This document shows, one piece after another, positions 18,322-50,092 of a stretch of 64,000 nucleotides of DNA. The translations under genes and the position numbers were made by a program. Within the stretch, counting starts at the first letter, position 1; each line of letters starts with the position of its first letter. The notes under the pieces are model-generated. The model made no database searches and was not told the DNA's origin. It was given only the letters and a program-made list of their open reading frames with translations. The DNA is from a virus: positions 39,869 through 103,868 of IMG/VR virus record IMGVR_UViG_3300008050_000024. One strand, given 5' to 3'.

Positions 18322-19076
18322 GGAGGATCCAACAAATGGAAAGAGCTAAAGAAAAAGGCACAGAACAAACCAAAGAGGCACCAAAAGTTCCGGAAGGGGA
18401 AAGAGAGATAACGCTATCAGAAGGTTACTCCTTAATGGAAACGGGTAATGCGATGATGCTCCACTATGCCGGAGGCGCATTCTTATCCGCTATACCTAAA
18501 GGCGAAGTGCCTGAAGGCTTCGAAACCCGGGAACACTTTGTAGAGGCTACGAAAAGAAAAGCTAAGATGACACAAATAATCATGGATCATCTGGAAAGTC
18601 TTACCAAGCAAATCATCGGCGTAGTACACAGAACCAAAATTACCATCCCAGGAGAGCCCGAACAGGTGTCCATTGCACAGGCTACATCTTTAATGGATTC
18701 TAAGTCCTGGGCGCAGAAACTCTACACTTCTTTGGAAAACCAGAGAGAGCAAACCAAAAAAGCGGGAGTGGAAGCCCAGGAAGAAATTCTTAAAGGGTTT
18801 GAAACCGCAGTTAAGGACTGGAGAAAAGGAGAATCGGGCGGTGACCCTAAAGTAGCAACAGCGCTTGGAGAACTCCGAAAGACGTACCAAAACCAGTACC
18901 AGATAGACGTACTGGACCCAGCAGGCGTTGATGCTTGGAAAGATCGCTTGAAGACAGTGTTTGTTTCTCACATTGTTCCAGTCAGCCGCGCCCTACAGGA
19001 CTCAAAGGAAAACACGAAATTGCAGATCAGTGAGCTGACATACAATCTCCTCAAGGGCCTGATTTTACCAGCGTAA
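18309..19076 (+). CDS. Hypothetical helical protein (start probably 18336)
   Basis: Long ORF; SD AAGGAGG before MERAKE. Confidence 0.6.
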   Translation: MGQIRRIQQMERAKEKGTEQTKEAPKVPEGEREITLSEGYSLMETGNAMMLHYAGGAFLSAIPKGEVPEGFETREHFVEATKRKAKMTQIIMDHLESLTKQIIGVVHRTKITIPGEPEQVSIAQATSLMDSKSWAQKLYTSLENQREQTKKAGVEAQEEILKGFETAVKDWRKGESGGDPKVATALGELRKTYQNQYQIDVLDPAGVDAWKDRLKTVFVSHIVPVSRALQDSKENTKLQISELTYNLLKGLILPA

Positions 19077-19102
19077 TTTTTCATCTTTAAAAAAGGACAT
19101 AC

Positions 19103-21142
19103 ATGATAAACGACACACCTTGGTTATCGTTCAAACTCGACGATAGCTTTATCGCACAGTATACAGACATAAATCCCGATCTGGGATTTGACGGGCTTGG
19201 CGCTTTTGTTTTTGCCCGGACCTACAGCAGATTAAAAGAAGACGGATCCAAGGAGTCGTTTGTCGATGTAATCCGAAGATGCGCGGAAGGAAGCTACTCC
19301 CTCCAAAAAGACCACATCATAAGCAACTGCTTAGGGTGGAACGAGGAAAAAGCACAGTTGAGTGCCCAGGTCATGTTTGATCATATGTACAATTTACGAT
19401 TCCTGCCAGCAGGAAGAGGGTTGTGGATGATGGGAACTGAGTACGCACATACTCGGAATCCTATGGGGCTATTCAACTGTGCTTTTGTCTCTACCGAAGA
19501 AATTGAGATTGAATCAATCCGCCCATTCACTTTCCTGATGGATGTGTCGATGGTCGGCGTTGGTTGTGGGTTTGATACAAAAGGTGCAAACAAAATGAAA
19601 ATGCACAAAGTGCAGAAGGACACTCCTCGAGGCACTTTTGTAATACCCGATTGCCGGGAAGGGTGGATTGATTCTTTAGCGCTTACAATGCGCCCCTATT
19701 TCACGGGCAATGATGCCACTTATGCTTTCGACTATTCTAAAATAAGAAAGAAAGGAGAGCTTATTAAAGGGTTTGGCGGGATTGCTGGAGGGCACGAACC
19801 CTTAGAACAAATGCACAAGGACATTAAGGAGGTATTAGATCGCCGTAGCCTGTCCGAAAATCCACTTTTAACTTCCCGGGACATCGTAGACATCATGAAT
19901 ATGATAGGTTCCTGTGTAGTCGCCGGTTCAGTACGCAGAACAGCCGAGATTGCTATCGGGGATCCCGACGATGAAGTTTTCCTAAATCTCAAAAATTATG
20001 ACATAAACCCTGATCGCCAAAACTACGGTCGATTCAGCAATAATTCCGTGTTTTCCACAGTCGGCATGAATTACTCGAAACTCGTCCCACGTACACTGGT
20101 CAACGGGGAACCGGGATACATTTGGTTAGACAACGTGCAGGCCTACGGTCGAATGTGTGATCCTCCGGACTACCGAGATAGAAATGCCCGGGGTTGTAAT
20201 CCCTGCGGAGAGCAATCACTCGAAAGCTGGGAAGTATGCAACCTTGTAGAAATCTTCCCACCAAATGTAGAGGATGAAGAGACGTTCATCGATGTTATCA
20301 AATATGCCTATCTTTACGGGAAGACAGTAACCCTGACCAAAACGCACATAGAGGAGACCAACCGAGTCCAGCACAAGAACAGAAGGATCGGTGTAGGCTT
20401 ATCTGGCTTAGCTATTTTCCGAGAACAGCACGGCATCGACGCTATGGTACATTGGATGACCCGAGGCTACGGACGCATTAAGTATTATGATGACGTATAT
20501 TCCAAATGGCTCGGGATCCCCTCATCCATAAAAACAACAACGATCAAGCCCTCTGGAACTGTGTCACTGGTTGCCGGCGTATCCGCAGGGATACACTACC
20601 CTCTATCCCCCTTTTACACAAAAAATATCCGGATGTCCGATAACAACCCTTTGACACAATGGGCTAAGGATAGTGGCTTTAAAATTGAACCCGAGATCAC
20701 ACATGAGCAAAACGAAGAAGGAGATTGGGTCCCTACAGGGAAAAGCAAAGATACCGTAGTTATTTCTTTTCCTGTTAAGATGCCCAATACAAAAAACATG
20801 AGAGGACGTGGTGAAGTTTCAGTATGGGAACAATTCAAATTGGTTGACCTCGCCCAACGCTATTGGAGTGATAATCAAGTCTCCTGTACAGTGTCCTTCC
20901 TAGACTCCGAAGAAGACGATGTTTTGCGAGCCCTGGAAATGTATGATCGAGACTTAAAGACAATCAGCTTTCTACGGTTTGATGCCGGGATATCTCCACA
21001 AATGCCGGAACAAGGGATATCCGAACAAGAGTACGATACAATGATTAAAGATATCACCCTTAGACCCCTGTATGATTATGAACTAAAAGATGCAGAAGGC
21101 GAATTGGGATGCACTAAAGACACCTGCTCTTTGGATAACTAG
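19103..21142 (+). CDS. nrdJ: Class II (adenosylcobalamin-dependent) ribonucleotide reductase, monomeric RTPR type
   Basis: PAGRGLW, LFNCAF, GVGCGFD, VVAGSVRRTAEI, NPCGEQ...CNLVE, TTIKPSGTVS, DNQVSCT, C-terminal CxxxxC; no nrdB in the window. Confidence 0.93.
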   Translation: MINDTPWLSFKLDDSFIAQYTDINPDLGFDGLGAFVFARTYSRLKEDGSKESFVDVIRRCAEGSYSLQKDHIISNCLGWNEEKAQLSAQVMFDHMYNLRFLPAGRGLWMMGTEYAHTRNPMGLFNCAFVSTEEIEIESIRPFTFLMDVSMVGVGCGFDTKGANKMKMHKVQKDTPRGTFVIPDCREGWIDSLALTMRPYFTGNDATYAFDYSKIRKKGELIKGFGGIAGGHEPLEQMHKDIKEVLDRRSLSENPLLTSRDIVDIMNMIGSCVVAGSVRRTAEIAIGDPDDEVFLNLKNYDINPDRQNYGRFSNNSVFSTVGMNYSKLVPRTLVNGEPGYIWLDNVQAYGRMCDPPDYRDRNARGCNPCGEQSLESWEVCNLVEIFPPNVEDEETFIDVIKYAYLYGKTVTLTKTHIEETNRVQHKNRRIGVGLSGLAIFREQHGIDAMVHWMTRGYGRIKYYDDVYSKWLGIPSSIKTTTIKPSGTVSLVAGVSAGIHYPLSPFYTKNIRMSDNNPLTQWAKDSGFKIEPEITHEQNEEGDWVPTGKSKDTVVISFPVKMPNTKNMRGRGEVSVWEQFKLVDLAQRYWSDNQVSCTVSFLDSEEDDVLRALEMYDRDLKTISFLRFDAGISPQMPEQGISEQEYDTMIKDITLRPLYDYELKDAEGELGCTKDTCSLDN

Positions 21143-25147: not shown

Positions 25148-25483
25148 ATGAGCAACCAACAAAAGAAACGACAAAAGAAAAGAACTCTACGGCAACAGGC
25201 GTTCCTTGCTGTAGGTGGTAGACGGATCCAGCGCCACATCGATGTTTTGACTGATCAAAACAAGACCAAAGAAGCGCACGAACTAACACTCGCATTGGAT
25301 ATTAAGATCAAAACGTGGATAACCAATCACGGACACAAAACCCAGAATGACATAAAGAAAGAACACAGCGAATACCATAAAGGACATCAACTTGCGGTGT
25401 TTCTTTGTTTTGTTGGTGGGGTAGGGGTCATTGCGGTAGGAATATATCTTCTGCAGCTTATTAACACTAAGACACTATACTAA
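25148..25483 (+). CDS. Hypothetical protein with C-terminal transmembrane helix
   Basis: LAVFLCFVGGVGVIAVGIYLL hydrophobic segment. Confidence 0.55.
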   Translation: MSNQQKKRQKKRTLRQQAFLAVGGRRIQRHIDVLTDQNKTKEAHELTLALDIKIKTWITNHGHKTQNDIKKEHSEYHKGHQLAVFLCFVGGVGVIAVGIYLLQLINTKTLY

Positions 25484-28394: not shown

Positions 28395-28868
28395 CTATTT
28401 GACGAGGGAGTATATTTTGGCACCGGCGAGCAGGCCAAGTGCTTTTCCGATATTGTCGAAGATTCTGTTTCGGTGTGCTCTTGCAAGTTCCCGTTTGCCT
28501 GCGGCCACTTCGTTCTCTGTAAGCTTGACTCTTTCTTTCCAGAAGGCGATTTTTTCTTCGAACAACGCTTTTCGTTCTTCTTCGATGGCGAGTCGTTCTT
28601 GCCATTGTTCGAGAAGTTTGTTCTGCGTATTTTTAAGGACTTTGATGACATCGGTTAGCTCTTCAGTTTTATGGACAAGTCCGAGTTTCTCCGCTTTTAA
28701 TGCTACATCTTCGGCAACATGAGTTTGGAAATTTTCTTCAGTTAAGTACACACCGGGAGACAGTGTAACCTCTGCTCCCTTGACTACGGCTTTAAAGGGT
28801 TCTTGTATCCGCTGAAACTTGACAGAATGACAAGTATAAACGAAAATGATAAATAAAATGAGTCTCAT
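28395..28868 (-). CDS. Exported coiled-coil protein, spanin-like candidate
   Basis: Hydrophobic N-terminus ending in Cys (weak lipobox), coiled coil, hydrophobic C-terminus; ATGA-coupled to the upstream TM gene. Confidence 0.45.
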   Translation of the reverse strand: MRLILFIIFVYTCHSVKFQRIQEPFKAVVKGAEVTLSPGVYLTEENFQTHVAEDVALKAEKLGLVHKTEELTDVIKVLKNTQNKLLEQWQERLAIEEERKALFEEKIAFWKERVKLTENEVAAGKRELARAHRNRIFDNIGKALGLLAGAKIYSLVK

Positions 28869-29239
28869 GCTTCTTCAAACCCTGCCATCTCTTCGGCCTT
28901 AGCCGTATTACCTTCTGCCAATGCTTTTTCTACAACAGCAATGGCTTCCTCTAATTGATCATCTTTGATTTTGGTTCTCTTTTTGATTTCTTCTAAAGCT
29001 GTCTTCTGATCTTCCAGGGCATCATCCCATTTCATTTTATTGGCTACTTCTTTGACTTCTATTTTTGCAGCCTCAATGTCCTTTTTGTAGATGTCCTCTA
29101 GATTCTTTTTCTTTGCCTTCCGTATCTGTTCCACGACTTTAGAGTAGTCGCCTCCCAAGTATCTACGAACAAAAAGAAAAGCCAGAATAGCCACAAGAGC
29201 GTATCCGGCATACACCATATATTCTTTGAATTTATTCAT
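28865..29239 (-). CDS. N-terminal TM plus coiled-coil protein, i-spanin-like candidate
   Basis: YAGYALVAILAFLFV TM followed by a charged helix. Confidence 0.45.
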   Translation of the reverse strand: MNKFKEYMVYAGYALVAILAFLFVRRYLGGDYSKVVEQIRKAKKKNLEDIYKKDIEAAKIEVKEVANKMKWDDALEDQKTALEEIKKRTKIKDDQLEEAIAVVEKALAEGNTAKAEEMAGFEEA

Positions 29240-30173: not shown

Positions 30174-30566
30174 TCACTTTAATCGTTCGTCGGTTCCAAC
30201 TAATCGTCCAAAATTGGGCTTAGCCATCCGTCGCTGTATCCCTACAAAAAGCTTACCTTTGTTTTTTTCAAAATACACACGACGTTCGTAGCAATCTCTC
30301 GTTGTATGGATTTGACCGGCGTCATCTTTTACTTTTCGAAAAGACTTAAATTGACGGTAGGTCCAACAAGTGACGGCAACCCCGGGCCCTAGGTGTTTCT
30401 CAAGATTAACTTTTTGCTTTTTTTCCAAAATAAGTAACCGCCCAGGTTCCATTTTTTCGCCATTGTTATACCTGTCTTTAGTATTAGAGTGTTTGAACTT
30501 CTTCTTAGAAAAACGAAAATCTAAATACGAAAAAAGTTCTTGTATTGTTTTTGCTTTTCTAGCCAT
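30174..30566 (-). CDS. Basic hypothetical protein
   Basis: Coupled ORF with TAATG overlap. Confidence 0.55.
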   Translation of the reverse strand: MARKAKTIQELFSYLDFRFSKKKFKHSNTKDRYNNGEKMEPGRLLILEKKQKVNLEKHLGPGVAVTCWTYRQFKSFRKVKDDAGQIHTTRDCYERRVYFEKNKGKLFVGIQRRMAKPNFGRLVGTDERLK

Positions 30567-32056
30567 TATACAAACCTGTTAAGAAACTTCTTAGCTTCAT
30601 CTCCAGTGACAATAATGTACTTTCCTGTAATGGTTCCGGAGTATGAATTGGTGTTTGAGATCATGACAACCAACCCTGCAGCGCCTCCGCCATTGCCACC
30701 GTGCCCACCGTCTCCTCCGGCAGAGGAGTTTGGATCGTTTCCACTTACGCCAGTACCACCAGCACCGCCGTTCCCTGCACCTAGTCCAGATACAAAGGCT
30801 GTTATTCCTGCAGCTCCTGTTCCGGCAGTTCCGTCAGTTCCGTTAGCCGTGGCGGGATCGTCGGGAGCGCCATCAGGTGTTCGTGTTTTTCCTGCGGCTC
30901 CTGTTCCCCCTCCACCGCCTCCCTGTCCTCCAGGTAGTCCAGCATAGGGAGAGCTAGAAGAGAGATGGTACCAATAACTAGAACCATTAGCACCATTGCC
31001 CCCATTACCAGAAGCACCGTCAGTGACATAGCCACCGCCCCCACCCCCACCAGAACCAAACCCACCGCCGTTACCGCCGTTACCAGCTTCTGTTTTAGCT
31101 GCGCCACCGCCGCCTCCTCCACCGCCTCCTCCGGATCCAGCAGATCCAGCAGAAGTACCAGTTCCCGCAGTAGCCGACGATCCTGATGGGATTATTTGTG
31201 GGGGTAGGTATACTCGGTCAATTCGTGTAAGGAGTAAAAGAGCATCGCCCGCTCCTCCATTTTTTCCTATAGTAGGGGAATCGGGAGGGGGACCAACATC
31301 GGCCCCGGCATTGTCTAAAGAACCGCCTCCACCACCTAACCAGGAATTAGATTGACCGCCTCGGCCGACCCCGGATACAGAGGCTACTTCGGAGTATAAT
31401 CCGTTTCCTCCGTGCCCCCCTCCATTGGGTGATACCTTATCGGCGCCACCGCCTCCGCCACAACCAGGAATGCCGCAGTGTCCACCAGGCTCGCCGCTGT
31501 AGCCAGTCCCACCGGCATTTGCTGCAGCACTGGAACCACCGACGCCACCAGATACGTCAATATTTCCAGATCCACCAATGTCTCCTTCGGATACTAATAC
31601 AATCAGACCGCCTCCACCCCCGCCTGATGTAGTGTTTTCAGCCACACCAACAGCAGAGAGGTTGCCTATTACTGATATATTTCCTTTGGATAGTATTTGT
31701 GTCCAGCCACCGGAAGAGGCTTGAGAATTGCCTCCCTCTCGCTCTAATGGAGGAATAAATTTAGTTCCTAGCGTATCATACACAATTCCTAGAGGAGGTC
31801 CGGGATGACCGTAGAACTGTGTGACAACTCGGGCAATGCCCGCCTGTTGTCCTACCGTTAAATTATGGGAGATGGTTACTGCGCCCGTGGCTCGGTATAT
31901 TTTGCCTGAATTAACAGAATTATTGCCGTCTGTCGCAAGCGTAGTGGCTTCCAGGTCAGTATTACCAAAACCCGCCGTAATGGCGCCATCGGATTCATCG
32001 CCGTATATTCCTAGGGAGGGAGTATTATTTAATTTTGCAGATTTTAATTTTGACAT
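30566..32056 (-). CDS. Glycine-rich adhesin / fibre-tip protein, paralog 2
   Basis: Many GGGG and GxG runs; paralog of 32065..33504. Confidence 0.65.
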   Translation of the reverse strand: MSKLKSAKLNNTPSLGIYGDESDGAITAGFGNTDLEATTLATDGNNSVNSGKIYRATGAVTISHNLTVGQQAGIARVVTQFYGHPGPPLGIVYDTLGTKFIPPLEREGGNSQASSGGWTQILSKGNISVIGNLSAVGVAENTTSGGGGGGLIVLVSEGDIGGSGNIDVSGGVGGSSAAANAGGTGYSGEPGGHCGIPGCGGGGGADKVSPNGGGHGGNGLYSEVASVSGVGRGGQSNSWLGGGGGSLDNAGADVGPPPDSPTIGKNGGAGDALLLLTRIDRVYLPPQIIPSGSSATAGTGTSAGSAGSGGGGGGGGGGAAKTEAGNGGNGGGFGSGGGGGGGYVTDGASGNGGNGANGSSYWYHLSSSSPYAGLPGGQGGGGGGTGAAGKTRTPDGAPDDPATANGTDGTAGTGAAGITAFVSGLGAGNGGAGGTGVSGNDPNSSAGGDGGHGGNGGGAAGLVVMISNTNSYSGTITGKYIIVTGDEAKKFLNRFV

Positions 32057-38900: not shown

Positions 38901-40718
38901 TTACAAAAATTCAAAAAGCTTATTACTTACATATATATTATTATACCCAGTATACATATTTTCAAAAGGATTTCCATTAGGTGTAGGATTACCACTCGGA
39001 AGTCCTACAGGATCGATATGATATACACTAGCCTTGACCGCGGCTGCCCAAATATTAATATTCGAATCCTCCCGAGGAAACTCTAAAATACCCGTAATAT
39101 CTGTTTCTACCCAAAAACCATTGCTGCCCAAAGCAGAAAAATCAAAAGAAGTAGTAGAAGTCAAAGGAAGGTACACACCATGTCCTGAAAGAAAAACTTC
39201 AGGCAAACTATTAGGAAATCCTGTAGGTGTGGTAGCTAGCGAGTTTTCATGGTTGATTATATGCACCCTTGCCTTCGAAACATTGGCACCGCCACCATCC
39301 ATCCAGTACTGACCTAAAACAACAATAGTTGCTCGAACCGTACGATGGGACGTTCGAGGATGGGTATGGAGGTTATAGTAAGATAGAGCTTCATGCATGT
39401 ATGTGATATATAAATCAATTACAAAGCTCTTGGCACGCGGCGTCACCCCTGTTTCAATCTTAAAAATATCAACAGGAGGGGCATCTACCACAGGAGGAGT
39501 CATGCCACTAACATAGTGTGAAAACATCTTATGATGCCCCATCATACTCATTCCCGCCACAGGAATCGCACCAGTTATCATCCCCAACATTGGAGGCCCC
39601 GTAATATTATCCCGATGAATACTATTACTAGCAGGAATTATAGGGGGTACAGTATTTGGGTAAACGTGAGTCGAATATCCACCTGGGTAATCACGATTAG
39701 ACACGGCATAATCGGTATATCGATTATAATAATCGTCATGTACGTGGACGGGCACTCCTAGCTCGAACGTGCCATCTGTTTTGGTACGAACACCTTGACC
39801 AGACGCATACGAAGTATCCTGAAAAAACCACCATTCACCTACGTTGGTTCCTCCCGTTCTACCATCCCCATTAGAATGCGTGGCCAGTAACATATGACGC
39901 ACTTGAATAGGAGATGGAAAAACCTGCGATGCATCAATCGTTGGATCAATCGATGGATCACCCATAGGAATGTCATACAAAAAAATCCAATCCGATCCCG
40001 GAGGGTTGCCATCATTGGGGGGTGGCGTTGGATTTTCCTTAATCGAATAATACACTGCGGCCACTGATCCATCCGGATCGGTTTGATAATTATGCGGATA
40101 TATATGATGATCTAGCTGAAAACCAGTAAGAGTTACCACTCCCGAAAAATCCGCCTGTATCCAACCCCAATCATCATCGTCTGGAGCCCCTTGATTAGCT
40201 GACCATATTGTGTAAGCCGCAGCACCATATGTAAAACCATCAGACATCCTACCATCATTAACATCAGGGAAACCGGCTTCACTACTAGCAGAATATACAG
40301 CTGGAACAGTACTCGTCGCTGCTGACTGGGGGGCAGGAAGAGCGGGAACCGACGGACCAGAATTATTTACTTCCCATATGATAGGATCTTTGGATGTCAA
40401 TAAATATTGTTTCCAAACGCCCTCACCCGTATTCAGAACATGAACAAGGGTGTTGACTGTTAACGATGCTACAAGCGCATCCCGTTCTACAATTGTATTT
40501 ACCGTTACCAACGAACTTTTTGCGGCGATTTGTTCGTTGTTATGCTTGGTATTCCCCCACAAATCAAACAAGGAATGACAAATCGATGAGAATCCCAGAT
40601 CAGGCGTGTTATTGATAGCCGTCCGATTCGCAAAAATGGAAGTGGTTACTCGGGAACCGTGGGCAACTGCACCTTCTGTCGGATATGTAATTTGAAAATA
40701 ATCTTTAAAGTCGGTCAT
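38901..40718 (-). CDS. Tail fibre / receptor-binding protein with a discoidin (F5/8 type C)-like domain
   Basis: DG..W..WIQADFSGVVTLTGFQL...PIQVRHMLL...VGEWWF. Confidence 0.6.
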   Translation of the reverse strand: MTDFKDYFQITYPTEGAVAHGSRVTTSIFANRTAINNTPDLGFSSICHSLFDLWGNTKHNNEQIAAKSSLVTVNTIVERDALVASLTVNTLVHVLNTGEGVWKQYLLTSKDPIIWEVNNSGPSVPALPAPQSAATSTVPAVYSASSEAGFPDVNDGRMSDGFTYGAAAYTIWSANQGAPDDDDWGWIQADFSGVVTLTGFQLDHHIYPHNYQTDPDGSVAAVYYSIKENPTPPPNDGNPPGSDWIFLYDIPMGDPSIDPTIDASQVFPSPIQVRHMLLATHSNGDGRTGGTNVGEWWFFQDTSYASGQGVRTKTDGTFELGVPVHVHDDYYNRYTDYAVSNRDYPGGYSTHVYPNTVPPIIPASNSIHRDNITGPPMLGMITGAIPVAGMSMMGHHKMFSHYVSGMTPPVVDAPPVDIFKIETGVTPRAKSFVIDLYITYMHEALSYYNLHTHPRTSHRTVRATIVVLGQYWMDGGGANVSKARVHIINHENSLATTPTGFPNSLPEVFLSGHGVYLPLTSTTSFDFSALGSNGFWVETDITGILEFPREDSNINIWAAAVKASVYHIDPVGLPSGNPTPNGNPFENMYTGYNNIYVSNKLFEFL

Positions 40719-41095: not shown

Positions 41096-41791
41096 CTATT
41101 CTCGTAACCAATCGGGACAGGGATCAAAGTCATCAGGAGTTTTATACGTTTTTATACCCTCATCCCCCCGGTATTCTTCTATCCGTCTTTCCTGTGCAAA
41201 TTTCATAACACAGTCAAATCGGCGTTGGGTATCCCGCACTCCTTCTGGTTTTGCGTACCAGGGTAGCGTTTTCTTAAACTCCATAAACTGGTGAATAGAA
41301 AAATGTTGAAGGGTTTCTAGCCAATCGTGGCAAGTCCCCTCTACACTGATGTGGAATTGGGTGTGGTAATCGAGTAAAAACAAAAGGTCTAGAGTACGTA
41401 ACTCTAAATGCCCTATGCCCGCCAGATCGTTGATCCGGTAGAGCCCTTTGTCAATGTAAGCCTGACTAGCCTCATCCATAATGCGAAAGGCTAAAGGCGT
41501 CGACATAATACTGTTGACTCGGGCGATAACGGGTAAAAGCTGTTCGTCGTCCCGTGGTAGATTATTGAGGAACTTAATGTCCTGCGGAGTAACGCCACAA
41601 TCCATAAGCATTTCCCGGCCTTGTCTGTTTTTCGAGATGTCAAATTGTACTCGACCAATGGACCAACCAGAATCTCCTATTTTTGCATGGTAGAGTCTGG
41701 TCCACTTTTCTCTGTTGTTTCCCGTTTCACTGAAAGTAACGGCCTCCAGGCATAGCTTTCTAAGGGTTTTTTCTATCTTTAGGTTTCCCAT
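41096..41791 (-). CDS. Putative endolysin (lysozyme/pesticin-like fold)
   Basis: FSE...GDSGWSIGRVQFD resembles lysozyme-like muramidases; no signal peptide; SD AGGAG. Confidence 0.6.
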   Translation of the reverse strand: MGNLKIEKTLRKLCLEAVTFSETGNNREKWTRLYHAKIGDSGWSIGRVQFDISKNRQGREMLMDCGVTPQDIKFLNNLPRDDEQLLPVIARVNSIMSTPLAFRIMDEASQAYIDKGLYRINDLAGIGHLELRTLDLLFLLDYHTQFHISVEGTCHDWLETLQHFSIHQFMEFKKTLPWYAKPEGVRDTQRRFDCVMKFAQERRIEEYRGDEGIKTYKTPDDFDPCPDWLRE

Positions 41792-42710
41792 TGGTTTGCT
41801 CCTGTTTTTGCGTATCTACACTGTTTACCGCCTCGGCAAGAAGAGGCAGGCCTTTCCATAAAAGAATTGATGTTATGAAACAAATCAAAAAAGCAATTAC
41901 AGTAAAGGACTTCCAAGTCAATTTAGCCAAAACCTCAACAAGCCAGAGAAGAACTTTTAACTTCTTCTCCTCGCCCATTGCATGTAATTCGTTAAATCGA
42001 CTTTCTGTTTCTGTTATATTCGGCTGAAGCTCGTCTGTTTTCTTTGTTGTACACAAAGCCGGATCTAATGGACATGCTTCTAGTCGTTTATCCATAAGCA
42101 CAACCGACACTGATTCCATAATGCGTTCTACCGCATTATCTGACCAATCTTGAAGATCATCTTTCGTTACTATTTTTTCTGACATGCCCCGTATGCCTTT
42201 CTTTAAATCCTTTTGTTCATGCAGTACGTGTTCTAATTTGTTTTCTACCGCATTCCAACGGATAATCTTTTCTACATGACGAGCAAACTCACGAGCTTCT
42301 GTCCAGTTTCCAGGAGTCGGTTTACGAAAGATTCCCAAGTCATCGATTCCATGCGTACCGGTGATAGTCTCCGGGGCTATAGACATAATGAGAATGGGGC
42401 ACATGATGCAGGCTTTCCGTAAAGCAAAATAGACATCAACACCTTTCTCACCCCGGGCTAAATTTTGATCAATGATAATAGCATCGTAATTGTTCTCTTC
42501 ATCAATTTCTTTTAGCGCCTGCTTACCACTTAACCAAGGGGTAATATGAACGGTTCGCTGCAAGTGTTCTGATAGAGCGGCTCGAGTGTTATCTAATTCA
42601 AAATCACTATCATCAATAATCCCTATTCGATAAAGACCTGATTTGTGACGAGGCTCTTGCAAACAAATCGGTCCGCCTTTTACTTCTGGAGAAATAGCCA
42701 GTGCGCACAT
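41760..42710 (-). CDS. Receiver (REC) domain plus coiled coil plus C-terminal transmembrane protein, in the holin position
   Basis: IGIIDD (D33/D34), YDAIIID (D81), PILIMS (S110), FRKP (K130); TM FTVIAFLICFITSILLW. Confidence 0.8.
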   Translation of the reverse strand: MCALAISPEVKGGPICLQEPRHKSGLYRIGIIDDSDFELDNTRAALSEHLQRTVHITPWLSGKQALKEIDEENNYDAIIIDQNLARGEKGVDVYFALRKACIMCPILIMSIAPETITGTHGIDDLGIFRKPTPGNWTEAREFARHVEKIIRWNAVENKLEHVLHEQKDLKKGIRGMSEKIVTKDDLQDWSDNAVERIMESVSVVLMDKRLEACPLDPALCTTKKTDELQPNITETESRFNELHAMGEEKKLKVLLWLVEVLAKLTWKSFTVIAFLICFITSILLWKGLPLLAEAVNSVDTQKQEQTNGKPKDRKNP

Positions 42711-42711
42711 A

Positions 42712-43191
42712 TTATGAAAATCCCAACGTAATAATCCAAACTACCCTGTATGATACCGTACTGTTTTTGGTTTGAGCAGGATAAGTTACTCGGGCCAACG
42801 TTCTTCGATGTGTTGCGTTTGTGCATAAAATGCATTCAGTTAATTCTGTAGTACCGGCGCCGTTTCCTTCGGCGTTTGCTAGAACTCCACTAATCTTGAA
42901 TTGACTAACTGTAGGGTTAGTGACAGAAATGCTATCTTTTAAAAAAACAAGATCATCCAATTCTGTATCAGTTTCTACTTCCGCCGTCGTCCCTTTACCA
43001 AAACCAAGGCAAGACACGATATGATCGGCAATATCGACAGGACCATGAATACAATGGACAAGGGATTCTAACAGCCCGTCCACTACGACATTATGATCAT
43101 CGACAACGCAAAACTCAGGGATTCCAACCGATTTTTTAAAAAGTTGAAAATGTCCTTTTCGAGAAATTCTTATTTTATCTTCAAATTCCAT
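42712..43191 (-). CDS. Baseplate / tail-fibre attachment protein
   Basis: HNVVVDG, GFGKGTTA...DTEL, AEGNG...LTEC...ARVT...WII. Confidence 0.6.
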   Translation of the reverse strand: MEFEDKIRISRKGHFQLFKKSVGIPEFCVVDDHNVVVDGLLESLVHCIHGPVDIADHIVSCLGFGKGTTAEVETDTELDDLVFLKDSISVTNPTVSQFKISGVLANAEGNGAGTTELTECILCTNATHRRTLARVTYPAQTKNSTVSYRVVWIITLGFS

Positions 43192-43200
43192 TTCATCCTT

Positions 43201-43536
43201 CTAGAATACATTTAACGTAGCGGAATGTTGAAACAAAAGAGCTTCCAGATTCTGCGCCGATGGATAGAATAGTTTATCGCCGGGCTCTAGGGAAAAAACA
43301 TCAAGAAGCCTGTTGTACTCTTGGACGATCCAGTACATCTCATCGTCCCCGTAGATGTCCTTAACAATAAGGTCAAAGGCGTGGCGGTTTGCCTCGGTAA
43401 CTTCGACGTGCCCCTGAGAGGGTAATGTCTTTAAATCTCGGACAAAAGGAGAATCTAAGGAATCAAAGTCCTTTATAGTGGCATTCCATTTGTAGAACCG
43501 GCCCCGGTCCCATTTTCGGGTAACTTTAGAAGCCAC
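43201..43536 (-). CDS. Baseplate wedge gp53-like (LysM-type) protein
   Basis: FDLIVKDIYGDDEMYWIVQEYN...GDKLFYP; GTG 43536 overlaps the upstream TAG. Confidence 0.7.
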   Translation of the reverse strand: MASKVTRKWDRGRFYKWNATIKDFDSLDSPFVRDLKTLPSQGHVEVTEANRHAFDLIVKDIYGDDEMYWIVQEYNRLLDVFSLEPGDKLFYPSAQNLEALLFQHSATLNVF

Positions 43537-44567
43537 TATACCACCTGATCCTCGTCTGCGCCCCCCCATTTATGGAAGCCCATAATAAATGACCCCCATC
43601 GGGCTTCGGATGTTCTGTACATAGAAAAGTCATCGGATCGTGTGAGCGTCCTGGAATCGGAAAAGGTACGAGTAAAGATCCAGCGGTACACTTGTAGGTA
43701 CCAAGGAAACAGATACTCGCCTACGCTAGTCCAGCGAGCCTGTAGCACGCCTAAATCACCGTTAAATTCATCCGGATCTATATGGATATCGATAAACCCT
43801 CTTAGGCTTTCTACATCCCCTCCAGGCATTAAAGGTAAGAACGCTGCATCATACCAATTTACGATTTTTGTGCTTTCTGGTTTGAGATCGGTATTTATGG
43901 GAGCTCCTCCAGAATACAGCGCATACCAGAGCGCTAAATTCGTACCTCTAATCCGAAGAAAAGTTTTAATAGAGGCTACGATACCCCTTGTAATGTCATC
44001 TATGGCAGCATCGCCTTTTATAGCCGCTACCATATCTGCAATTCCGAGCTGCCCCATAAGTCGTTCTAGGGCGGGGTTTGTATCTTGGTCCCAGAATTTC
44101 AAGGCCTCTTGCAGTTTAGCCTCTCCATATTTTTCTAAAACGTACTGATGCGTTTCTAGGAGTTTGACATTAAGAGGGTACTTGAGCAACACGACCGGAA
44201 AATAATTCTTACCGTTAACAGCCAATAAACGAAGACCAAAAGCAGTAGCTATAATATTCGCCGGATTGTCCATCACTTCGTATTCCGGTGTCAACTGCGT
44301 ATCCCCTATTTTGACGACTAACAAAAGCGAGTCATTCTTAGTAATACGGATATCGACTGTTTTCTGATAAGTACCGTCTGTTGCTGCTCCTAGTCCTAAT
44401 TCGGTTAGAAGAGCTAAGCCTACGGCTGTGGTTAGATTGATCGTCGTTTTGTGCAAGTAAACACTTCGACAAGCCAACCGCAATTCTGTTTCAGAATCAG
44501 AGATGGTACAGGATAGCGTCTCTCCTAAGAATTTTTCAAAGGCATTTAGCCCTACAAGTGTCGCCAT
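43536..44567 (-). CDS. Baseplate wedge protein (gp7/gpI-like)
   Basis: LERLMGQLG...LRIRGT; follows the gp6-like gene. Confidence 0.55.
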   Translation of the reverse strand: MATLVGLNAFEKFLGETLSCTISDSETELRLACRSVYLHKTTINLTTAVGLALLTELGLGAATDGTYQKTVDIRITKNDSLLLVVKIGDTQLTPEYEVMDNPANIIATAFGLRLLAVNGKNYFPVVLLKYPLNVKLLETHQYVLEKYGEAKLQEALKFWDQDTNPALERLMGQLGIADMVAAIKGDAAIDDITRGIVASIKTFLRIRGTNLALWYALYSGGAPINTDLKPESTKIVNWYDAAFLPLMPGGDVESLRGFIDIHIDPDEFNGDLGVLQARWTSVGEYLFPWYLQVYRWIFTRTFSDSRTLTRSDDFSMYRTSEARWGSFIMGFHKWGGADEDQVV

Positions 44568-44568
44568 T

Positions 44569-46305
44569 TTATAAGTATCCCTTATTCAAGGGATCGCTGT
44601 CACCTTTGTATTCTAAGAGCATGGTAGCATCGGTGTAGAATGTGATGCTATCATTTCGCCTCTTAAAGTACTCACCAAAGGCCAATGTCTTATCCTCATA
44701 TGGGTAGTCGATGTACACCCGGGTCACGCCTGTTATGGCTAGTATCGTTTTGTGTAATGACCCTACGAAAAGACTTCCACCTAGTTTAAGGAAAATATCG
44801 TCAATGGCGGCCCGTATGGCTATTAGAATTGTAGCAGAAGCAGAAGAGGTTGTATGAATGACTGTCATACTAAAGTCTACTTCTTTTCGAGTAGGTGCCA
44901 TCAAATTATTTTTTGTAGCAGCCATTGCATGTTTTGCTACAAAGAACCCCTCAAAGGCCTCAGTTTCACTGCCCACACCAGTCGTCAATTGATGCTCAAC
45001 CCCTCCATCGTCCTCAGGATCCATTAAATAGACTATATCAAGTTCACACACCTTGCCCGGTGTTCGTCGTGTCTTAGTATCTTGGAATTGGGCAAATCGA
45101 GCTGTAATGACATCACAGTTCTTTAGAGTAACACCCTGTTTCTGTGAAGCCCAATGCCGGGGGGCCAGGGAAGCTACTTTCTTTGTGGCTTCTTGGTTTG
45201 TTCCCGTGGTAAGCATATCCCCAGCCGCAATGGGTTGGATGTTGGTTATTTTTGCCTGGCTTGATGTGAAGGAAGTGCTCAAGTCAATCACGTTTAGCAC
45301 TTGTCCCGGGGTAGCTAGCGCCTTTACTGTGACTATATGATTTTGTCCCGGTTTAGCCCCCAAGATGCCATCTCCGAATTGAAGACGTACGTCACCATCA
45401 AAATGCGTTGTGACGAGCACTGATGTAGGTGTGATCATTTCTTCAGTATCTTGTATGACTGTTTGAGCTGTTACTGTTGCCCCATCATCGATGTCAATAA
45501 ACACATACTTCAAATTGCCATTTGAATCGATGTCCGAGGAAATTTCAAAGTTAGTAGAATTGAGCAAGTACCATTCAAAATCAACAGAATTCAAAATTGT
45601 CTTGGTATAGGTTTTCCAAGTACCAAGTACGACCGTGACAGCTCGACCTAACGCAGCCAAAACTGACCCCGGGAGCAGCACTTCCGCCGTATCAAAGTCT
45701 TCGTTGATTTCGACCTTGTCAGCAGTAACCGAGAATACGGTATACGTAGCATCGTTTGCTAAAGTATTTGCCCCTGTCAGTTTAATTTCTTGATCAACAC
45801 TCACACCGGCAAAAGGCGAATTTACCAAGTCTTCAAAATAGGCTTTATTGCCTCCAGCAGCTTTTACTAGGTTGGTGTCGACTCCGACAGTCAACGCAGC
45901 ATTCGCTATTGCCTTTTTAATTAAAGTGTTATCATTTATCACAGAAACATCGTAGGTACTAAGCGTAGCTAGTATATCCGTACGATCTAATGTGACATCC
46001 TCAGACACATCCATTCTGATCGAGAATGAGGGGGCAGTTTTACGATGAGGCACATACCCTAAGGCTAAGGCTATCAGGTAGATGCTCGTCTGTAATTGGG
46101 CCTCTGTAATATAGCCTTCTCTTCGCATTGTATCGATACGAGTGTTATACATCGTACCAATACCCGCCATAAACTCCAACATCGTCTGACCTGTACTGGA
46201 TTCGAAAAAATCAATCCAAGAACGGTAATCGTCTAGACCTTGAAGATACGTTTGAAGATCTGCTAATACAGCATCGAAAGATAAGTAACTAGAATTCTGA
46301 ATCAT
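44569..46305 (-). CDS. Baseplate wedge gp6/gpJ-like protein
   Basis: SFDAV..DL, DFFESSTGQTMLE, EGYITEAQ, ALGYVP, FGDGILGAKP, APRHWASQ. Confidence 0.85.
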   Translation of the reverse strand: MIQNSSYLSFDAVLADLQTYLQGLDDYRSWIDFFESSTGQTMLEFMAGIGTMYNTRIDTMRREGYITEAQLQTSIYLIALALGYVPHRKTAPSFSIRMDVSEDVTLDRTDILATLSTYDVSVINDNTLIKKAIANAALTVGVDTNLVKAAGGNKAYFEDLVNSPFAGVSVDQEIKLTGANTLANDATYTVFSVTADKVEINEDFDTAEVLLPGSVLAALGRAVTVVLGTWKTYTKTILNSVDFEWYLLNSTNFEISSDIDSNGNLKYVFIDIDDGATVTAQTVIQDTEEMITPTSVLVTTHFDGDVRLQFGDGILGAKPGQNHIVTVKALATPGQVLNVIDLSTSFTSSQAKITNIQPIAAGDMLTTGTNQEATKKVASLAPRHWASQKQGVTLKNCDVITARFAQFQDTKTRRTPGKVCELDIVYLMDPEDDGGVEHQLTTGVGSETEAFEGFFVAKHAMAATKNNLMAPTRKEVDFSMTVIHTTSSASATILIAIRAAIDDIFLKLGGSLFVGSLHKTILAITGVTRVYIDYPYEDKTLAFGEYFKRRNDSITFYTDATMLLEYKGDSDPLNKGYL

Positions 46306-48098: not shown

Positions 48099-49265
48099 TT
48101 AAGCTACCTGTCCAAATCCGTCTCTGCAAAAATAAATCCGTTCGTAATAAGAGGAATCACCATAGGCCCTTGATATTTTTGTAACGATGTAGTCCCCAGA
48201 AAAGAAGGTATCAGATTGATTCGACTTCCCCCCTTCTGATTCTGGATTCTCTAGTAGGAATGTGACCTTGTCTAAAAGGCTGATGCTTCTCTTTGTATCT
48301 CCTACTGTTATCTGGTTTGGAAGCATTACGTTTCCACCGACCTGACTGAACCGAGCTAGGTTGGTTTGATTTTGCAGGTACGCGACATTGAAATTTTCGT
48401 GCACGTTGTCCTTATCTAGATGTCGTAGGGGAAACCGGCGTTGATACGGCGATATCGTCGGAACACGCTGTGCTGTTGCTGTCCCTGCTGTAATTTGTTG
48501 TTTCGTATGTGTCTGTCCCGTAAGGTCCCATTCTCCTACGCTCCTACCCGCTCCTGCGTATGCTCCAAGGAAGCCGGTACTCTCATTAAGCATGGGCGAG
48601 GTGTACTCGAACGTTCTGCTATCCTTCGTACCTCCATGCGCATACGTCAAAATAGCGTTTGACCGTCCTGCATTTAATCGCCAAATCACATCTGTGTAAA
48701 TAATGAAATTACTCAAGTCAATGGCAGGTACAAACAAAGACGTTGCGTCCTTGTACCCATGTATCCAAAGATGATCTACAAATTCCCGAAAAGACATTGC
48801 CGGGTTGATCCAAGTCATTGAATCTTTTGACGCATGGGAGAGTGTCGCACTCTTTCCAAACACCCAGGAACATATTTCATCTATCACTTCGGTAGACACA
48901 GTATCTGCATATGACTTGATCCAAGTATCATAATAATATTTTCGATACCCTTTGCGGATTCCCGATAACTTAACCAAATGTTCATTTTTAGCCCGCAGTG
49001 CCGGAATATCAGGCAAGTCTACAATTTCAAAAGCATACTGGAATGAGGTTTGTGACGACGGTCCTAGCCGGATAACCACGTCGGAATCGGCGTGCAGTTT
49101 ATTCTTGAGTATGTCCAACCCCCGAATGGAAGCGGTCAACTCAAATGTAGGACACATATTTCCACTTTCTTCTACCACGATCAAACTCGTCACAGCTTCG
49201 AAATCCAGGGAAATTCCGCCTATGCTAACATCTACGAACCATTGTCCTTTTATTTCTGCTGGCAC
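48099..49265 (-). CDS. Baseplate hub gp27-like protein
   Basis: Size, position and C-terminal SGDYIVTKISR. Confidence 0.7.
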   Translation of the reverse strand: MPAEIKGQWFVDVSIGGISLDFEAVTSLIVVEESGNMCPTFELTASIRGLDILKNKLHADSDVVIRLGPSSQTSFQYAFEIVDLPDIPALRAKNEHLVKLSGIRKGYRKYYYDTWIKSYADTVSTEVIDEICSWVFGKSATLSHASKDSMTWINPAMSFREFVDHLWIHGYKDATSLFVPAIDLSNFIIYTDVIWRLNAGRSNAILTYAHGGTKDSRTFEYTSPMLNESTGFLGAYAGAGRSVGEWDLTGQTHTKQQITAGTATAQRVPTISPYQRRFPLRHLDKDNVHENFNVAYLQNQTNLARFSQVGGNVMLPNQITVGDTKRSISLLDKVTFLLENPESEGGKSNQSDTFFSGDYIVTKISRAYGDSSYYERIYFCRDGFGQVA

Positions 49266-50092
49266 TAGGTACTCTCTGTGAACTTACGGTCAGTTGAAAG
49301 TGTCGAAGAATCCTTTGGAGCGGGAAGAGACGGTCCCGTACTCCTCACGACTTTAAGACCGGGAGATCCCTGCTGACCACTGAACCACTCTGCTATAATG
49401 TCCGCATCGGGAACTTGATAAGTCATTAACTGGCATTGCACCCTTGACATGACGGGAACGCCATCGGCATTTACCGTCCGGCTATATGTGTACGTAGCCG
49501 AGGGCATTACAAAGTAATTCAAAATCCCTAACCATCTTCCAATATGGACAGAAAGCAGTCCCGATTTCTGAGAAGGTAGCATTCCTAATGGAGGAGAAAA
49601 AGTGTAGTCTCCGGTAGTCGAGCTTTTGCGGGGATACACTGCTCTAAGAATTTCTTGTACAGGAAGCATAACGTCTTTTCTGGCTGTTTCCCGGGACTTC
49701 GCTATAAAGGTTAGATTAATCGGCAAAACCATGTGTCCCGCATTTGTCCATTTGACTTGGGACATGACTTGGGACTTTAGAGAAAAGGGATCAAAGTTAG
49801 CCTTGACCTGCTCTCCCGCCGTCCCCGCACTTAGTCCTGTCATCTTTCCTGCGGCGTTAATAGCGTCTGCTCCGAAGCCCACCAACATCTGACCAAGTCC
49901 TACAAAGTCTTCTCCCGCTTGCATTGCCTGGGATGATATTTGAAAAGCACTCGCCCACTCTGATTGAAGGGAAGAACTAACATCGTGCTCAAGTATTCCT
50001 TGGACCCTAATCTTAGGCTGATTCCCGCCCCGAATAATGACACGATAATTAGGATTGTCTAACCTAGATATGTAATAATCAAAGTCTTTCAT
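49265..50092 (-). CDS. Baseplate-tube junction protein (gp48-like candidate)
   Basis: YP...PP...VHIGRW pattern; directly after the tape measure gene. Confidence 0.55.
   Translation of the reverse strand: MKDFDYYISRLDNPNYRVIIRGGNQPKIRVQGILEHDVSSSLQSEWASAFQISSQAMQAGEDFVGLGQMLVGFGADAINAAGKMTGLSAGTAGEQVKANFDPFSLKSQVMSQVKWTNAGHMVLPINLTFIAKSRETARKDVMLPVQEILRAVYPRKSSTTGDYTFSPPLGMLPSQKSGLLSVHIGRWLGILNYFVMPSATYTYSRTVNADGVPVMSRVQCQLMTYQVPDADIIAEWFSGQQGSPGLKVVRSTGPSLPAPKDSSTLSTDRKFTEST

Follow-up and report, generated by a model that had tools for sequence, protein, structure and literature searches.

Does a membrane protein that carries a receiver domain, and whose gene overlaps that of a probable endolysin, take part in host lysis, and could its phosphorylation tie the moment of lysis to the state of the host? 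A sequence-only reading of this locus had proposed that the membrane protein is a holin or antiholin whose trigger is set by a host kinase or by acetyl-phosphate. The window that was analyzed covers 64,000 nucleotides, i.e., bases 39869-103868 of the 103,868-bp IMG/VR virus record IMGVR_UViG_3300008050_000024, which has an estimated completeness of 94%; unless stated otherwise, coordinates are those of the window. A myovirus late module occupies the minus strand from ~28395 to 63890, and codes for sheath, tube, gpV-type hub, PAAR, gp25 and baseplate J/wedge proteins, and the remainder of the record carries replication, nucleotide metabolism and 7-deazaguanine pathway genes. Cultured phages are distant relatives only (~25% identity in the sheath and baseplate proteins), megablast of the region of the two genes against phages gave no match, and a baseplate J query in IMG/VR returned no close relative. 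The two genes sit between the baseplate wedge genes (42712-46305) and a 605-aa fibre-like gene (38901-40718); in distant cultured relatives such as EP_H11 the baseplate genes run directly into the fibre genes, without a comparable insert. The baseplate gene order differs between L002, the closest relative (18843-19190), and the window (43201-43569), so that the 122-aa wedge-like gene, which is found here after a 343-aa gene, is located in L002 between the homologues of 49265-50092 and 48099-49265. Among the fibre genes, a 496-aa protein (30566-32056, minus strand) consists mostly of Gly-rich (GGxGG) stretches and probably has a structural role, as a fibre or collagen-like protein.

The 316-aa gene (41760..42710, minus strand; hereafter REC-TM) is predicted to code for an N-terminal receiver, a helical linker, one C-terminal transmembrane helix and a short charged tail. 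The receiver (REC) domain, at about residues 27-135 (42306..42632, minus strand), was assigned with Pfam PF00072 and by residue checks. The match to PF00072 is borderline: hmmscan of the ORF gave an E-value of 8.7e-7 and 29.5 bits, just below the cut-off of 30.2, and the six-frame search gave 31.3 bits, above it. The catalytic set is nevertheless complete, with the acidic pocket D33/D34, the phospho-acceptor D81 (codon at 42468-42470), S110 and K130-P131, so that the full CheY-like receiver of the sequence-only reading was recovered residue by residue. When aligned with PhoP (1mvo), D81 occupied the phospho-Asp position and S110 that of the conserved Thr, and the DD pair, D81 and K-P did not vary when two phage receivers, V22 ORF30 and R9Y3 g12, were aligned with the domain. 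Every phmmer match of REC-TM in the PDB was a receiver. In structure prediction, the AF2 model is poor (pLDDT 40), and the Atlas model (pLDDT 0.61) reached a structure TM of only 0.42-0.48 to REC-bearing clusters, with structural neighbours that all carry REC or kinase-type domains. The domain appears to be a real but divergent receiver, and on sequence it is predicted to be phosphorylation-competent.

The sole strongly hydrophobic segment of the protein lies at about residues 267-290 (Kyte-Doolittle 19-mer mean of 2.0-2.1), in agreement with the C-terminal hydrophobic helix described earlier; it contains the single predicted transmembrane helix (about residues 267-287; 41850..41912, minus strand), which is followed by a charged tail of 29 residues. 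The coiled coil that had been proposed was recovered only in part, since a crude heptad score marked a short heptad-like stretch at about residues 148-190, but the region is otherwise a hydrophilic helical linker (about residues 136-250; 41961..42305, minus strand; AF2 secondary structure, of low confidence, and heptad score). The Pfam search of the 316-aa protein detected no domain other than PF00072, i.e., no output domain, DNA-binding or other, and HisKA and HATPase_c domains were absent from the whole 103,868-bp record, which extends to the entire genome record the earlier observation that no histidine kinase lies near the endolysin.

Both ORFs of the proposed pair are present, and, as had been noticed, the 3′ end of the REC-TM gene overlaps the 5′ end of the lysin gene; the sequence reads as an overlap of 32 nt (41760..41791, minus strand). 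An AGGAG Shine-Dalgarno sequence (41799-41803) is located 7 nt before the ATG of the 231-aa gene, inside the 3′ end of the REC-TM gene, and this lysin start is conserved among homologues. The ATG of the REC-TM gene is in turn 1 nt past the stop of the upstream 159-aa gene. The REC-TM and lysin genes share one late operon and are translationally coupled, and REC-TM stands where a holin gene classically does, in the same orientation as the probable lysin, upstream of it and overlapping its start. The GC content and codon usage of the REC-TM gene resemble those of the neighbouring genes, and therefore it is not a fresh foreign insert; a recent horizontal acquisition was rejected on these grounds.

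The downstream gene (41096..41791, minus strand) codes for a signal-less lysozyme-like protein of 231 aa, whose N-terminus is free of any hydrophobic stretch. This protein had no match in Pfam even at an E-value of 10, nor in PHROGs, NCBIfam or the PDB when searched with the single sequence or with profiles. An exhaustive profile search retrieved 104 family representatives at E≤1e-3, most of them of 180-250 aa, that share the motifs NE-x-G, SG(Y/W)SFG-x-x-Q-x-D, DYH(N/T)QF and RR. The conserved positions in the 231-aa protein are E22 (codon 41726-41728), S41-G42, S44, G46, Q49 and D51, and further downstream DYH(T/N)QF at 141-146 and R190-R191; E22, S41-G42, G46, Q49 and D51 vary little or not at all across the family. 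A few long members are fused to PG_binding_1, Peptidase_M23, SH3_3 or RTX repeats. The lysin family comprises ~100 clusters and is invisible to current Pfam, PHROG, NCBIfam and PDB sequence searches.

A distant link to a described enzyme was suggested by the ESM Atlas, where the 231-aa protein is placed beside clusters that carry PF21277 (the T6SS VgrG3-like C-terminal domain, a lysozyme-like effector) or PG_binding_1, with a feature score of 0.96 and a structure TM of 0.62-0.86 to these clusters, values that are a lead only; the AF2 model of the protein is poor (pLDDT 50). Five genuine PF21277 members have in common the N-terminal motif YESgGN...GDxGGxSYGxYQF, to be compared with sETGnN...GxSGxSFGxxQFD here, i.e., E-x-G-x-N ... 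G-x-S-(Y/F)-G-x-x-Q-F, and the two kinds of protein are of similar length. With hhalign against the five members only the catalytic motif was aligned, and this alignment is weak (P of 0.015 versus 0.18 for the reversed control). Unlike the VgrG3 domain, the 231-aa protein is a stand-alone phage protein and not the extension of a T6SS spike, and the PF21277 HMM matched neither the genome nor the lysin family members. Judged by motif and model, the family resembles, and may be distantly related to, the VgrG3 C-terminal lysozyme/muramidase domain.

The 231-aa protein is a probable endolysin mainly because small transmembrane or holin proteins are encoded beside its relatives, which is the strongest support for this assignment. 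A small transmembrane protein was found within two genes of the lysin in 21 of the 29 related loci with a called ORF, against a background of 10% for other small ORFs. At locus L018 a phrog_199 holin (E 6.9e-22) is encoded at +2, and the +1 gene has a weak holin match. Most members of the family are small and stand alone, and in prophages their genes close the late operon together with the holin-like genes that come after them. We therefore take the protein, from its motifs, fusions, Atlas neighbours and the holin neighbours of its relatives, as the predicted endolysin of an undescribed, uncharacterised lysozyme-like family. The putative endolysin without a signal peptide of the sequence-only reading is thus backed indirectly, by its N-terminus, family context and fusions, but not by any direct family match.

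The lysin relatives are paired with ordinary small multi-transmembrane holins or have no membrane neighbour, and are never paired with a REC protein: PF00072 matched in none of the 29 viral records that carry the lysin family. In the closest relatives, L002 and L038, the lysin lies between head genes without a membrane neighbour, and therefore this gene moves independently. In related phage (L002, 7799-9544, plus strand; L038, 518-1237, plus strand) the gene before the lysin codes for a 581-aa protein whose C-terminal half consists of G-x-W repeats in a long series (GIWESGVWQGAQW...), and which has no counterpart in this genome. As for REC-TM itself, only the protein itself was found in a database of 5.8 billion protein clusters with the whole protein or the REC region as the query, and no homologue was detected by tblastn on phage records, in IMG/VR, or by phmmer on all the fetched loci of lysin relatives. 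REC-TM is an orphan, and the pairing of receiver and lysin is not conserved in this lineage; therefore, conservation and co-occurrence cannot be used here as evidence.

We then considered which protein might open the membrane for the lysin. The 316-aa protein matched no holin, antiholin or spanin family in Pfam, PHROGs or NCBIfam, and neither a recognisable holin nor another lysin family was found in the genome. REC-TM has one transmembrane helix and a charged 29-residue tail, yet it is 316 aa long with a predicted cytoplasmic domain of ~265 aa, and such a tail-anchored single-helix protein fits no known holin class or architecture. No other transmembrane protein is encoded between 29239 and 44569, in keeping with the claim that no other holin candidate lies near the endolysin, but membrane proteins are encoded elsewhere in the genome. 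At the 3′ end of the late operon, a 124-aa protein (28865..29239, minus strand) with an N-terminal transmembrane helix and a charged helical domain is i-spanin-like or class III holin-like, and has a weak match to the Rz-like spanin phrog_20026 (E 1.1e-3). The next gene, whose start overlaps it, codes for a spanin-like protein of 157 aa (28395..28868, minus strand) with an N-terminal signal, a lipobox-like VYTC, a helical middle and a hydrophobic C-terminal end; no family match was found for this protein, which recalls a unimolecular spanin. A 111-aa protein (25148-25483, plus strand) at the end of the replication/ThyX operon has a very basic N-terminus and one C-terminal transmembrane helix, being tail-anchored like REC-TM, and is without a family match. 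Small two-transmembrane ORFs are present in the early region; a 71-aa ORF in the early/middle region, outside the window (genome 25457-25672, plus strand), has two transmembrane helices and an MKRK N-terminus, and resembles a class II holin in size and shape. Large myoviruses, e.g., T4, often scatter their lysis genes.

A receiver and a membrane-tethered helical protein, encoded by separate genes, also occur beside the lysin in two unrelated cultured Alteromonas phages. In V22 (MN877442), a permuted papain-like amidase is encoded after the tail fibre and chaperone genes, and behind it come a 125-aa helical protein, a 149-aa REC protein, a 136-aa coiled-coil protein with an N-terminal transmembrane helix and an 87-aa two-transmembrane protein. 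In R9Y3 (OM732337), a 121-aa helical protein with an N-terminal transmembrane helix, a 150-aa REC protein and an annotated lysozyme are encoded with a 4-nt overlap each. V22 ORF29/ORF30 and R9Y3 genes 13/12/11 share with the present locus a kinase-less, phosphorylation-competent REC in a late operon, which adjoins or overlaps a peptidoglycan hydrolase gene, is accompanied by a membrane-tethered helical protein and is located downstream of tail genes. In both phages, however, the REC (~150 aa) is encoded apart from the helical membrane protein, which is anchored through its N-terminus, whereas here there is one 316-aa protein with a C-terminal anchor; furthermore, no sequence similarity is detectable beyond the REC core (blastp E 2.2), and the lysins belong to other families (a permuted papain-like amidase and an annotated lysozyme). 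REC-TM looks like a new fused form of this barely characterised, recurrent phage arrangement. As independent cases, V22 and R9Y3 raise the odds that the REC-TM gene is associated with lysis.

The literature searches returned no paper on a REC-holin or a REC-regulated lysis system, consistent with the earlier statement that no such fusion has been described; free CheY-like genes at this genome position, those of V22 and A5, have been published, however, as class II auxiliary metabolic genes (AMGs) in a 'host recognition module' (PMC7289586, PMC10579305). The 'Receiver domain' of N4 (PMC12642591) was discarded, since the term denotes there an unrelated region of a pinholin.

Among known lysis systems, the class III holin T of T4 with its antiholins RI and RIII offers a parallel, namely a single-transmembrane lysis protein with a large soluble regulatory domain. 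In T4 lysis inhibition the timing of lysis is set by a signal that is read by a soluble domain, and T4, a large myovirus, has its lysis genes scattered. The cytoplasmic N-terminus of T is short and its large domain is periplasmic, whereas the large domain of REC-TM is predicted to be cytoplasmic and is a REC, and there is no homology between them. Stand-alone and coiled-coil response regulators (CheY, DivK, CpdR; FrzS-type) likewise have the full phospho-acceptor set without a DNA-binding output, and their output is presumably exerted by protein contact or oligomerisation; they are, however, soluble cellular proteins with cognate kinases, whereas REC-TM is phage-encoded, membrane-anchored and kinase-less.

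The likeliest reading, to which we assign a probability of about 0.45, is that REC-TM is a lysis-associated, phosphorylation-responsive membrane protein. The product of 41096-41791 would be a cytoplasmic, signal-less, lysozyme-like endolysin of an undescribed family, and the 316-aa product a tail-anchored inner-membrane protein with its receiver and helical linker in the cytoplasm, a one-protein version of the membrane-tethered helical protein plus free receiver of V22 and R9Y3. In lysis, this membrane protein might itself make the hole for the endolysin, or might act as an antiholin-like regulator while a gene located elsewhere supplies the holin. Host kinases or acetyl-phosphate would phosphorylate D81 and so change the oligomeric state of the helical/transmembrane part, and this change would affect the release of the signal-less lysin, so that the timing of lysis would be tied to host physiology. 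At this locus, it is on position that the lysis reading rests. A narrower proposal makes the 316-aa protein the holin, with a single tail-anchoring helix that forms the hole and with aspartyl phosphorylation of the receiver as its gate. This proposal is doubtful; if it were correct, the split Alteromonas forms (membrane helix protein and free REC) would represent the same device in two pieces. Of the overall proposal of the sequence-only reading, the probable signal-less hydrolase, the competent receiver, the lack of a kinase and the holin position stand, but the assignment as a hole-former is not supported: the protein matches no holin family and is an orphan, the lysin relatives are never paired with a REC, and the genome codes for other membrane-protein candidates.

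A different view of REC-TM, which we consider rather unlikely, is that of an auxiliary gene acting on host signalling. The anchored receiver would then be a decoy late in infection, drawing phosphate from host two-component or chemotaxis pathways as a sink or competing with them, and it would lie next to the lysin only because insertions are tolerated between the baseplate and tail-fibre genes. The CheY-like genes of V22 and A5 have been interpreted in this way, as class II AMGs (PMC7289586, PMC10579305), and this points in the same direction as do the orphan status of REC-TM among other unknown small genes, the direct passage from baseplate to fibre genes in distant relatives, the location of the lysin elsewhere in its relatives and the lack of an output domain. 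Expression from a late operon would, however, leave little time to reprogram host signalling, a membrane anchor is unnecessary for a sink, and neither the tight translational coupling to the lysin nor the recurrence of REC genes beside lysins in unrelated phages would be explained.

Two further possibilities were considered. The real holin might be another gene, such as that of the 124-aa protein with the N-terminal helix (28865-29239), that of the 111-aa tail-anchored protein (25148-25483) or the 71-aa two-transmembrane ORF (genome 25457-25672), with REC-TM having an unrelated or decayed function. These membrane ORFs do exist, the first with its weak Rz-like spanin match, and the lysin relatives use small multi-transmembrane holins; but none of the candidates matches a holin family or lies near the lysin, and the retention of every catalytic residue and of native codon usage by the REC gene argues against decay; we consider this account improbable. 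Slightly less probable still, in our opinion, is an entry module, in which the 231-aa enzyme would be a virion-associated lysin that acts during infection. REC-TM would then have no part in lysis from within, but serve as a factor in assembly, exclusion or the envelope. The location of both genes between the wedge genes and the 605-aa fibre-like gene and that of the lysin among head genes in L002 and L038 would fit such a module, and the literature has an interpretation of VgrG3-like domains of phage proteins as virion-associated lysins (PMC13237592). Against it, most family members show the endolysin pattern, i.e., small stand-alone proteins with holin-like genes that end prophage late operons, the hub of the baseplate is already equipped with a gpV/PAAR spike, and a cytoplasmic REC domain is without an obvious role in the virion.

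Lysis timing beyond the intrinsic holin clock is understood in few systems, e.g., T4 lysis inhibition. If REC-TM is itself the phosphorylation-gated holin, the phage would read the phospho-signalling or acetyl-phosphate state of its host to decide the moment of lysis. A receiver that forms part of a lysis cassette would represent a direct channel from host physiology (two-component kinases and acetyl-phosphate) to lysis. The fused single-gene form would be the simplest test construct, one gene plus the lysin, with D81 as the obvious switch residue. A lysis-linked receiver would also reinterpret the 'CheY-like AMGs' that have been annotated in cultured marine phages.
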